From a virus: DNA of 10,290 nt. Below, in pieces: positions 455-3,533 of the stretch. A model generated the notes under the pieces. It worked only from the letters and a program-made list of their open reading frames with translations, was not told the DNA's origin and ran no database searches. Position 1 is the stretch's first letter. Each line of letters starts with the position of its first letter. The translations under genes and the position numbers were made by a program. The stretch lies in the UHGV virus genome UHGV-0301654; one strand, given 5' to 3'.

Positions 455-480
455 TTATCTAAAACCTCGGTTTACAGGAA
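455..480. repeat. left crossover site of the invertible segment (gix/pix/hix-like, 26 bp)
   Basis: ttatctaaaacctcggtttacaggaa; its reverse complement ttcctgtaaaccgaggttttagataa matches the Gin-type crossover consensus as I recall it: two 12-bp half-sites around a central GA. It is an inverted copy of 3508..3533, and the inverted repeat extends to about 492. Confidence 0.8.
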
Positions 481-1425
481 ACGGTAAATCAGGCTTCTGG
501 CGCATTACAGAAAAACCAGAACGGCGCAGATATTCCGGGAAAAGATACCTTCACCAAAAACATTGGTGCCTGCCGCGCATATAGCGCATGGCTGAATATT
601 GGTGGCGATAGTCAGGTCTGGACAACTGCGCAATTTATTTCGTGGCTGGAGAGTCAGGGGGCATTTAACCATCCTTACTGGATGTGCAAAGGCTCATGGG
701 CTTATGCAAATAATAAGGTTATTACAGATACAGGTTGCGGAAATATTTGTCTTGCAGGTGCTGTGGTGGAAGTTATTGGCACTCGCGGCGCAATGACCAT
801 ACGCGTTACTACGCCGAGCACGTCCAGCGGTGGCGGAATTACTAACGCTCAATTCACTTATATTAATCATGGTGATGCTTACGCTCCTGGCTGGCGACGA
901 GACTACAACACGAAAAACCAGCAGCCTGCATTTGCTTTAGGGCAAACAGGACGCAGGGTCGCAAATGATAAAGCTGTTGGCTGGAACTGGAATAGCGGTG
1001 TTTATGATGCAGATATCAGTGGTGCATCGACATTAATCCTCCACTTCAATATGAATGCGGGGAGTTGCCCTGCTGTACAGTTCCGCGTGAATTACAGGAA
1101 CGGCGGTATTTTTTATCGTTCAGCGCGTGATGGTTATGGCTTTGAAGCTAACTGGTCAGAGTTTTACACCACAACACGCAAACCCTCTGCGGGGGATGTT
1201 GGTGCATATACGCAGGCAGAATGTAACTCAAGGTTTATTACAGGTATTCGCCTTGGCGGTCTGTCATCTGTTCAGACATGGAAAGGCCCCGACTGGTCTG
1301 ACAGGTCAGGTTATGTCGTTACGGGTTCAGTTAACGGAAACCGTGCTGAATTAATTGATACAACTCAGGCAAGGCCAATTCAGTATTGCATTAATGGGAC
1401 GTGGTATAACGCGGGGAGTATTTAA
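481..1425 (+). CDS. tail-fibre variable C-terminal domain (Sv), not currently joined to a constant part
   Basis: Frame is open from the crossover site (TAA at 460..462 just precedes it) to the stop at 1423..1425. The first ATG is only at 682, as expected for an exon-like variable segment. It starts TVNQASGALQKNQNGADIPGKD and ends RPIQYCINGTWYN, a motif shared with the opposing variable domain. Confidence 0.75.
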   Translation, partial: TVNQASGALQKNQNGADIPGKDTFTKNIGACRAYSAWLNIGGDSQVWTTAQFISWLESQGAFNHPYWMCKGSWAYANNKVITDTGCGNICLAGAVVEVIGTRGAMTIRVTTPSTSSGGGITNAQFTYINHGDAYAPGWRRDYNTKNQQPAFALGQTGRRVANDKAVGWNWNSGVYDADISGASTLILHFNMNAGSCPAVQFRVNYRNGGIFYRSARDGYGFEANWSEFYTTTRKPSAGDVGAYTQAECNSRFITGIRLGGLSSVQTWKGPDWSDRSGYVVTGSVNGNRAELIDTTQARPIQYCINGTWYNAGSI

Positions 1426-1427
1426 CG

Positions 1428-1961
1428 ATGATGCACTTAAAAAACATTACTGCTGGCAACCCTAAAACAAAAGAGCAATACCAGCTAACAAAGCAATTTA
1501 ACATCAAATGGCTTTATTCAGATGATGGAAAAAACTGGTATGAGGAACAAAAGAATTTCCAGCCAGACACTTTGAAAATGGTCTATGACCATAACGGCGT
1601 TATTATTTGTATTGAAAAGGATGTTTCAGCAATTAATCCAGAGGGTGCAAGCGTCGTTGAATTACCTGATATTACAGCAAATCGCCGGGCTGATATTTCG
1701 GGGAAATGGATGTTCAAAGATGGCGTAGTGATAAAGCGAACTTATACCGAGGAAGAGCAGAGGCAACAAGCGGAAAATGAAAAGCAAAGCCTGTTGCAAC
1801 TTGTCAGGGATAAAACCCAGCTATGGGACTCACAGCTACGGCTGGGCATCATTTCCGACGAGAATAAACAAAAATTAACCGAGTGGATGCTCTATGCGCA
1901 GAAAGTCGAATCTACAGACACTTCCGGCCTGCCAGTAACGTTTCCCGAACAACCAGAATGA
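1428..1961 (+). CDS. tail fibre assembly protein (Mu U / lambda Tfa family)
   Basis: 177-aa ORF immediately after Sv. Its N-terminus ([24 protein letters not shown]...KNWYEEQKNFQPDT) is paralogous to the convergent ORF at 1990..2517. The C-terminus has the W/Y-rich tail typical of Tfa chaperones. Confidence 0.85.
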   Translation: MMHLKNITAGNPKTKEQYQLTKQFNIKWLYSDDGKNWYEEQKNFQPDTLKMVYDHNGVIICIEKDVSAINPEGASVVELPDITANRRADISGKWMFKDGVVIKRTYTEEEQRQQAENEKQSLLQLVRDKTQLWDSQLRLGIISDENKQKLTEWMLYAQKVESTDTSGLPVTFPEQPE

Positions 1962-1965
1962 GAGA

Positions 1966-1991
1966 AGGCCCGCTATCGGGCCTTAATTTTT
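1966..1991. terminator. putative bidirectional intrinsic terminator between the convergent tfa genes
   Basis: Hairpin aggcccg-ctat-cgggcct (7-bp GC-rich stem) followed by taattttt on the + strand. It sits in the 28-bp gap between the two convergent stop codons. Confidence 0.5.
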
Positions 1992-2517
1992 ACTCTGGTT
2001 TTTGTGGCCATTCAGGATTTGCCGTATCCACACGGCTGACCAGAACACTGTAGCGTTCCCATGCTTCCAGTCGTGTGCGTTCCTCGTCTGTTGCCATATT
2101 CAGCCTGACAGCGCGTTCCAGCGGTTGGATGACTGATTCAGCTTCGGAAAGCAATGCGGCCTTTTGTGATTCGGCCTGTTGTTGTTGCTCGTCTGCCGTA
2201 TAAATCCGTTTAACCACAGCTCCGTCCCTAAACATCCACTTACCGGAATCATCAGCGCAGCGGTTGGCTGTAATATCTGGAACCTCAACGACGCTATAAC
2301 CTTCAGGGTTAAGCGTGGAGGCATCTTTGGTGATGGCGACAATAATATTATTTGCATCGTAAACAATCTTTATTGTGTCTGGCTGAAAGTTTTTCACTTC
2401 CTCATACCAGTTTTTTCCGTCTTCGGACCATAACCAGATAACATCAAAATTCTTTGTTAGCTGATATTGTTCTTTTGTTTTTGGATTTCCAGACTTAATA
2501 TTTTTTAAATGCTGCAT
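1990..2517 (-). CDS. tail fibre assembly protein, second copy (U')
   Basis: 175-aa ORF ([24 protein letters not shown]...). The C-terminus ...[28 protein letters not shown] resembles the C-terminus of lambda-type Tfa ([16 protein letters not shown]...EWP). It lies directly downstream of S'v. Confidence 0.85.
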
Positions 2518-2520
2518 AAA

Positions 2521-3483
2521 TTACACCTGTACGACGTTATACCATGTGCCATTGATGTATTTTTGTATTGGTCTGAATACTGCCGGATCATCGCCATCAA
2601 CTGCACCGATAATGCCAAGCCCCGTAATTGCATGACCTGATTTCTCATACATCACGCCTTTTTGCATAGTCTGAACAACACGTGTACCAAGTCGGACATC
2701 TCTCACATAACGTGAGTCAAAATTACCATAATTGCCGGGAATAACTTGCGCACCGCAAAGCCAGTTGCCATTGTTGTCCATGTACGCCTGACCATCGGTG
2801 CCATTGGCTGTCCTTGAGTTATTAATCATGTAGATGCCAAATTGCTTATTCCCCAGTCCACCAATCATAAATTTGCGATCAGCGTGGTCCTGACGAAGTA
2901 ATGCCTGCGCACCATCGGTGGATACCGCATTGCGTCCCAAAATAACATTCTGGTCACGCATATGAATCCACATGCCGGTACTACTGTTAATTGCAAAACG
3001 GTTTGCAAATATATCCCCTGTAACATCAAGACCATGCCCCATGCTTATCCGACCAGTTCTGAGATTAAGCGTAAAGGGGCGTAGTGGCCCTATATCACCA
3101 TTTTCTCCCTCATTCTCTCGTGTAGGGATGATATGCAGGCATTCTTCAGAACGACGAAAAATAGCACCAAAAGATGAATTAAATATCCTCAGTGCATTGA
3201 CTGTCGATATTTTTACTTCACTGCTGAAAAGGGCTTTAACAAGGACAGACAAAGCATCCCATTTAAGAGTCATCAGGTCTTTTGTTGTGGTGCTCTGGCG
3301 GCTTCTCCATTTGAAATATTCATTGCCGTTGTCGCCTGTTTCAAACCACATGTATGAATCAGTGTCGCTGTCGGCATTATTTTTAAAACCAATCTTTGCC
3401 CAGTCAGTATTTCTAATCCAGGCAAGGATTGAGTCGTTTTCAAAAGTAAGCCCACCGGACAAGGTATCGCCATTCTTTTGCAC
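2521..3483 (-). CDS. tail-fibre variable C-terminal domain (S'v), in frame with the constant-part remnant
   Basis: 320-aa ORF from a GTG at 3483. The frame actually stays open upstream through the right crossover site to 3711. Ends ...RPIQKYINGTWYNVVQV. Confidence 0.75.
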   Translation of the reverse strand: MQKNGDTLSGGLTFENDSILAWIRNTDWAKIGFKNNADSDTDSYMWFETGDNGNEYFKWRSRQSTTTKDLMTLKWDALSVLVKALFSSEVKISTVNALRIFNSSFGAIFRRSEECLHIIPTRENEGENGDIGPLRPFTLNLRTGRISMGHGLDVTGDIFANRFAINSSTGMWIHMRDQNVILGRNAVSTDGAQALLRQDHADRKFMIGGLGNKQFGIYMINNSRTANGTDGQAYMDNNGNWLCGAQVIPGNYGNFDSRYVRDVRLGTRVVQTMQKGVMYEKSGHAITGLGIIGAVDGDDPAVFRPIQKYINGTWYNVVQV

Positions 3484-3507
3484 GGCGTTCCTGGCCCTGT
3501 TTACCGT

Positions 3508-3533
3508 TTCCTGTAAACCGAGGTATTCGATAA
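3508..3533. repeat. right crossover site of the invertible segment
   Basis: ttcctgtaaaccgaggtattcgataa; the first 16 bp are identical to the reverse complement of 455..480 and the central GA is conserved. Flanking similarity extends to about 3496. Confidence 0.8.

Follow-up and report, generated by a model that had tools for sequence, protein, structure and literature searches.

A decayed Mu G/P1 C-type switch at the end of a lambdoid side-tail-fibre gene, very probably still flipped in trans after loss of its output

Among the invertible host-range switches of bacteriophages, the G segment of Mu (invertase Gin), the C segment of P1 (Cin) and the P segment of e14 (PinE) provide the framework for the locus described here. 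In intact members of this family, two 26-bp sites stand in inverted orientation and a serine invertase exchanges strands at their 2-bp cores. By this inversion one or the other of two C-terminal receptor-binding cassettes, each followed by a chaperone gene of its own, is fused in frame to the constant N-terminal part of the fibre. In EC958, inversion in the lambdoid prophage Phi4 was seen in PacBio reads despite a 'severely truncated' invertase, and Forde et al proposed the invertase of Phi1 as a helper acting in trans (PMC4134206). Thus the switch, and its flipping without an invertase of its own, have been known on the same chassis since 2014 (PMC4134206). Help in trans has also been described for PinQ of prophage Qin, which inverts the P segment of e14 (PMC12529663). 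In the present study, we analyzed the UHGV virus genome UHGV-0301654, a stretch of 10,290 nucleotides (the window, whose numbering is used throughout), and in it the segment at 455-3533. It is very probable that 172-3685 is a decayed switch of the Mu G/P1 C type at the end of a lambdoid side-tail-fibre (Stf) gene, which has lost its output and is still flipped in trans. To the earlier work we add evidence, from the comparison of genomes, that copies across the family flip often and that flipping continues after the fibre gene has been destroyed.

In a distant BLAST search of phage genomes, 210-3533 was collinear with the G-segment regions of P88, D108 and Mu (94%, 92% and 88% DNA identity, respectively) and also with the C segment of P1 and P7. 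Such a collinear alignment to phages means homology and not mere resemblance. The crossover sites were searched for with the Mu gix sequence TTATCCAAAACCTCGGTTTACAGGAA, taken from the Mu genome record at the annotated boundaries of the G segment. At three or fewer mismatches this query had exactly two matches in the window, at 455-480 and 3508-3533, and none of 200 shuffles gave a match, so that no such site is expected by chance. The published 'Phi4_5prime' site of EC958 has exactly the sequence of the right site, and the left site of EC958 is nearly identical to the left site here (PMC4134206). Read on the plus strand, the core dinucleotides are TC at 467-468 and GA at 3520-3521; they are reverse complements of each other, as is required for productive inversion. 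This is the arrangement of the Gin/Cin/Pin/Hin (Din) systems, namely two inverted imperfect palindromes of ~26 bp with matching 2-bp cores. The sites lie in an inverted repeat with arms of 38 nt each (451-488 and 3500-3537), which are 92% complementary and have an uninterrupted identical core of 24 bp, CCTCGGTTTACAGGAAACGGTAAA.

On the minus strand, an uninterrupted frame covers 3711-2521, and at the right site its translation is ..AVIEYLGLQETVNRARNAVQ..; the left site, translated on the plus strand, gives ..AII*NLGLQETVNQASG.., with an in-frame stop at 460-462. The first-pass annotation of the window, made from the letters alone, had put both sites in the same coding context. This holds for the right site, which stands in ..AVIEYLGLQETVN.., but for the left site only the inner half of that context is common, as is expected of a crossover inside the gene. 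When 467-3521 was inverted in silico, the constant remnant became fused in frame to the other cassette.

Between the sites there are two C-terminal fibre tips, each with its cognate chaperone gene, which converge on each other as in the switches of Mu G and P1 C (Table 1). For the frame at 2521-3711 (minus strand), the amino acid identities are 92% (P88 fibre), 74% (P1 S) and 64% (Mu S). All four open reading frames (ORFs) of the cassettes are open, and a GTG at 3483 opens an ORF of 320 aa. The cassette names given at first had to be exchanged: Sv-U and S'v-U' were swapped in comparison with Mu and P1, the silent cassette being the homologue of S'v-U'. The proposed 'S'v-on' state was right in that the cassette at 2521-3519 is the one fused to the constant remnant, but its label was wrong, as this cassette is the Mu/P1 Sv-U homologue, G(+).

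Two lesions have crippled the locus. The first is in the invertase gene. The remnant keeps the YVRVST motif with the catalytic Ser9, and its TGA stands where an Arg codon was, as seen in the alignment with Mu gin, the P88 invertase gene, P1 cin and e14 pinE. Pfam placed the N-terminal domain of Resolvase on 209-412 (minus strand, E=4e-18), which covers only profile positions 2-73 of 145. The E-helix (oligomerisation) and the helix-turn-helix DNA-binding domain are absent from the remnant, and Pfam gave no helix-turn-helix there; because both are gone, the stump is unable to recombine DNA. The Din systems have a functional resident invertase of ~185-195 aa with catalytic domain, E-helix and helix-turn-helix. 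Here, homology ends near 172, and on the identical DNA of relatives RefSeq annotates a 195-nt 'recombinase family protein'. The fusion of tfa and invertase near 172 marks an old deletion or recombination that took away the 3' two-thirds of the invertase gene. A fusion of identical type was observed in prophages at two chromosomal sites (bio and trp) with different cassettes, from which it follows that the truncation is old; it may date from the grafting of the module onto a lambdoid stf-tfa.

In the part of the gene that has been left, ~100 nt from the 5' end are exactly those of Mu gin and ~200 nt are nearly so, including the enhancer-equivalent stretch, which sits 85-157 bp from the left crossover point. 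In the Salmonella Hin system, the native enhancer lies ~100 bp from hixL (PMC3798978). By its sequence and place, 311-382 may serve as the recombinational enhancer. The stump is also a mosaic, as its first ~200 nt are identical or nearly identical to Mu gin and P88 and its last ~50 nt are closer to e14 pinE and P1 cin.

The second lesion is in the constant part. In intact relatives, the module takes the place of the C-terminal end of a lambda-type Stf, and the gene, which lies downstream of J and lom, extends ~1.7 kb further and encodes a 'prophage tail fiber N-terminal domain' protein of 959 aa or 945 aa. In the window a rearrangement has cut it at 3685, and the fibre frame is without a start codon ahead of the GTG at 3483. 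Both fusions with the cassettes are in frame, as had been foreseen, but in place of a complete, expressed N-terminal part each has ~50 codons; with the constant part cut to this length and without a start codon, no complete fibre is possible in either orientation. The same junction was found in Z0117EC0098, PK8566 and EC20-4B-2, and exact-match scans of metagenome contigs and of GTDB species representatives found none. We also considered whether the end of P88 homology at 3685 is a mosaic boundary; this was rejected, as in the intact MSI001 the P88 homology reaches the equivalent of about window position 4007.

Overall, these results agree with the first-pass annotation in most of its anatomy. 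It had read the locus as an invertible host-range switch of the G-segment type with every part recognisable, and sites, cassettes, chaperones, invertase remnant and constant remnant have all been identified. The two inverted 26-bp sites were recovered at the coordinates it had given, with 1 and 2 mismatches to Mu gix, and of the other known crossover sites to which they were to be aligned, cix and pix diverge more. The interior ORFs, on whose similarity the proposal depended, proved to encode tail-fibre and assembly proteins (Pfam gp37_C, Gp34_trimer and two Caudo_TAP), and the damage to both the invertase and the constant part was confirmed.

The same annotation had also considered the switch to be probably frozen, and here the comparison with relatives led to a different result. 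In such a frozen fossil, the dead resident invertase would lock the segment in its present orientation, and decay would follow. The stump without dimerisation helix and DNA-binding domain is what this explanation expects, three of the four known copies with both lesions have the orientation of the window, and in a strain without any other Gin/Pin-family invertase it could hold literally. The comparison set comprised 5,426 complete E. coli genomes, which were searched with the segment in its present state and with a flipped query, made by inverting the segment in silico. The window orientation was found in ~15 records (99.7-100% identity) and the flipped orientation in at least 28, end to end at 99.7-100%. 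The flipped matches take in the invertase-tfa fusion, so these records carry the same truncated invertase.

For closer comparison, four flipped and seven unflipped loci of relatives were retrieved, and their reading frames and haplotypes were compared after un-flipping in silico. The haplotype of the sequence does not predict the orientation. The flipped 63-2 and the unflipped PEC1003 have 0 differences in 11,685 nt, and the flipped STEC309 and the unflipped Z0117EC0098 have 2 differences in 7,685 nt, whereas the two pairs are ~350 differences apart from each other. Two pairs of near-identical copies in opposite orientations, which are distant from one another, mean at least two independent and very recent flips after the loss of the invertase. 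Furthermore, a query spanning the flipped right junction and the rearrangement junction at 3685 retrieved a single full-length match, EC20-4B-2, in which the invertase stump, the 3685 junction and the terminase/lysis junction are all as in Z0117EC0098 but the orientation is opposite, with 5 differences in ~16 kb. As this copy is flipped and has both lesions, its segment was inverted after both had arisen. Inversion is thus documented at the population level, from near-identical copies. Since the same truncated-invertase element is found in both orientations, even with no difference in 11.7 kb and in a copy with both lesions, since both sites and the enhancer-equivalent stretch are intact, and since the EC958 culture showed inversion of the same chassis (PMC4134206), a frozen switch is an unlikely explanation. 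The word 'fossil' is true of its function, but 'frozen' is not true of its orientation.

We suggest that the segment is flipped from outside. In the present copy, no fibre can be made from the truncated constant part in either orientation, and the output of the switch is lost. With its cis parts intact, the segment should still be a substrate for Gin/Pin-family invertases encoded elsewhere, and such an orphan segment would be flipped in trans by the invertases of other prophages. Invertase homologues are present in 3,755 of the 5,426 genomes, and TUM9868 has a flipped copy together with an annotated pinE elsewhere in its genome. We infer that a trans-acting invertase, and not another process, does the flipping, and that the source strain has such an enzyme.

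A different process that could produce the polymorphism of orientation is RecA-dependent homologous recombination between the 38-bp inverted repeats, for which their 24-bp identical core would serve. In the flipped genomes, the outer, site-specific mismatches remain with their flanks; this is predicted by both mechanisms, hence it does not discriminate between them. A length of 24 bp is at or below the minimum substrate for efficient RecA recombination, which counts against this process. In addition, the flips are frequent and recent, with 0-5 differences between pairs of opposite orientation, and the repeats contain genuine invertase sites whose core dinucleotides match. For EC958 Phi4, Forde et al ascribe the inversion to an invertase acting in trans (PMC4134206). 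Homologous recombination is therefore a very improbable source of the flips.

Four observations weigh against flipping in trans by an invertase, or against our placing of this lineage in it. A crossover by the invertase is indistinguishable from homologous recombination inside the 24-bp identical core. In EC20-4B-2, a 3,685-nt query gave no second megablast match, so that a helper there is below ~85% DNA identity or has been lost. The rate of flipping in the lineage with both lesions has to be judged from the only four known copies, three unflipped and one flipped. The arrangement of the whole 10,290 nt was found in none of the 5,426 genomes (best 70%). With these points taken into account, we still hold flipping in trans of a switch without output to be very probable.

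It may also be asked whether the crippled switch has been put to a new use. Read-through from DUF1398/ynfO would then express, in either orientation, a receptor-binding tip that lacks its N-terminal part, along with the cognate chaperone; a surface receptor would be masked by this tip, and flipping would alter which receptor is masked. The genes directly upstream on this strand are DUF1398 and ynfO, the cassette ORFs are all open, and the GTG at 3483 offers a start. There is also a precedent, as the prophage fibre chimera StfE2 of e14, made by PinQ-driven inversion, blocks the adsorption of T2 (PMC12529663). By analogy, the doubly crippled segment could be imagined as an orphan phase-variable locus driven by the invertases of other prophages, whose anchorless tips would give switchable receptor masking against superinfecting phages; we give this idea hardly any credence. 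Only 1-8 differences separate intact relatives or sister copies from the remnant, so that the truncation is very recent and open ORFs are uninformative on selection. A promoter and terminator scan of 1-5200 gave nothing above the shuffled background and no evidence of a promoter or ribosome-binding site, and is itself uninformative on expression of the remnant. The lineage is rare, with three complete genomes and no matches to its junction in the metagenome or GTDB scans. Such an exaptation is accordingly highly unlikely, and the decayed switch flipped in trans is the reading that we retain.

These findings have some practical consequences. A segment is not necessarily frozen when its resident invertase is dead, and the orientation in an assembly should not be taken as a fixed genotype. 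In addition, RefSeq/PGAP calls the fibre gene 'incomplete' or split in the window orientation, yet the 959-aa frame is open in 6 of 6 such loci with a full-length gene; flipped relatives have one intact 945-aa gene in RefSeq/PGAP. The full-length frame is open in all 10 of the retrieved loci that keep it (959 aa unflipped, 945 aa flipped). We therefore rejected the reading of the PGAP pseudogene calls as real frameshifts; the discrepancy is an annotation artefact which follows the state of the switch. The locus may also be regarded as a small case of cross-talk between prophages, in which the recombinase of one acts on the sites of another.

Table 1. Coordinates of the switch and of the features that border it, in window numbering
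Feature	Coordinates	Strand	Basis and remarks
3' end of tfa (last ~30 codons), in frame with the invertase remnant	74..171	-	Translation; partial tfa annotation in relatives
Remnant of a Gin/Pin-family serine invertase gene	172..400	-	GTG start at 400; 64 codons, then TGA at 206-208, then ~11 homologous codons (~76 in all)
Putative recombinational (Fis-dependent) enhancer-equivalent stretch	311..382		Corresponds to cin nt 19-90 (annotation of the P1 record); 100% identical to Mu gin
Left (invertase-proximal) gix-like crossover site, TTATCTAAAACCTCGGTTTACAGGAA	455..480	+	25/26 as in Mu gix (1 mismatch); identical to P88 site; core TC at 467-468
Silent variable fibre cassette, homologue of Mu S'v, G(-) specificity	469..1425	+	Pfam gp37_C; 95.9% aa identity to the variable part of Mu S'; stop just upstream at 460-462
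Tail-fibre assembly chaperone of the silent cassette, homologue of Mu/P1 U'	1428..1961	+	Pfam Caudo_TAP, E=2e-36; aa identity 97% to Mu U', 95% to P1 U'
G+C-rich terminator-like hairpin between the two convergent cassettes	1965..1984	+	Consensus scan only
Tail-fibre assembly chaperone of the joined cassette, homologue of Mu/P1 U	1990..2517	-	Pfam Caudo_TAP, E=7e-38; aa identity 94% to Mu U, 97% to P1 U
Variable fibre cassette now in frame with the constant remnant, homologue of Mu/P1 Sv (G(+)/C(+)) and of the P88 fibre C-terminus	2521..3519	-	Pfam Gp34_trimer
Right (constant-part-proximal) crossover site, TTATCGAATACCTCGGTTTACAGGAA on the minus strand	3508..3533	-	24/26 as in Mu gix (2 mismatches); identical to P88 site
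Constant-part remnant of the lambdoid side-tail-fibre (Stf) gene, ~50 codons, no start codon	3534..3685	-	Relatives match only up to 3685
Rearrangement junction	3685..3686		Fibre gene head-to-head with DNA normally after the lambdoid lysis cassette (DUF1398, ynfO, cos, Nu1, A, W)

The surroundings of the switch were also compared with complete genomes. From identical DNA in these genomes, the host element is a cryptic, decayed lambdoid prophage integrated between ybhC and ybhB/bioA, which is where lambda attaches in E. coli, and the switch occupies its bio-proximal end. Just left of position 1, all relatives examined have a gene for a diguanylate cyclase with a sensor domain, set between ybhB and the end of the prophage; it resembles cargo of the prophage end or an island at the attachment site. 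Positions 1-174 are the reverse complement of the end of AH62 tfa and the spacer adjoining this cyclase gene.

On the other side of the junction, 3686-10290 is a second lambdoid remnant in opposite orientation, with DUF1398, ynfO, cos, Nu1, A and W, followed by the portal gene B, which breaks off at 8152. From there the sequence passes into the middle of a lambda-type stf (8153-9486), which has another internal deletion near 9486, and a complete tfa comes next. At 8500-9200 this stf holds a long Ala/Ser/Thr-rich region of degenerate repeats of 21-45 nt (families D1-D3). The arrangement of the window could not be derived by one inversion of an MSI001- or AH62-like prophage, as the stf-tfa at 8153-10188 is of AH62 type but different DNA follows. 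There are two further repeats. The two tfa 3' ends, that of the stump and that of the complete tfa (9613-10188), form an inverted repeat of 80 nt (92-171 and 10100-10179, 93%), and the ~10-kb block between these arms could in principle invert by homologous recombination. A direct repeat of 29 nt (508-536 and 9455-9483, 90%) encodes ..LQK(N/D)QNGADIP.. in the silent G-type cassette and in the lambda-type stf. It resembles the short conserved blocks which are common to otherwise unrelated fibre genes and is a likely point of recombination; the second copy is without a gix-like site.

Among the known systems, P88 (Xuanwuvirus, P2-like) is the closest sequenced phage, with 94% identity over 210-3685 and both sites identical. 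In intact relatives, the tract similar to P88 starts in the invertase stump and extends ~470 nt past the right site; in MSI001 this takes it ~320 nt beyond the equivalent of 3685, into the constant part. P88 differs in its annotated full-length invertase gene of 588 nt, its complete fibre gene of 764 aa and its P2-type tail cluster. With Mu G/Gin, the locus has in common the order of invertase, site, S'v, U', U, Sv and site. The constant part, however, is that of a lambdoid Stf with a P88-like junction region and not Mu S, both the invertase and the constant part are truncated, and the host is a lambdoid prophage and not a transposable phage.

Phi4 of EC958 has the same lambdoid J-lom-Stf setting, an invertible segment and a truncated invertase fused to the 3' end of tfa, with 96% identity over 86-475. 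It lies at another chromosomal site (near trp/ompW), its segment is 3106 bp long, its variable cassettes are different (only 2188-2579 aligns, at 81%) and its fibre gene keeps the N-terminal constant part. The likeness to P1 C/Cin and e14 P/PinE is one of mechanism and gene logic, and the stump is similar to cin and pinE at its distal end. In P1, the U and U' chaperones are 95-97% identical to those found here, and the AATACC variant recurs in the outer half-site of cixR. Both cix and pix diverge more, with a core of TT/AA in place of TC/GA, and the e14 cassettes are unrelated at the DNA level. Overall, the locus is a degenerate member of a textbook family, which has the sites, the cassettes and the inversion of its relatives and lacks a functional resident invertase and a complete constant part.

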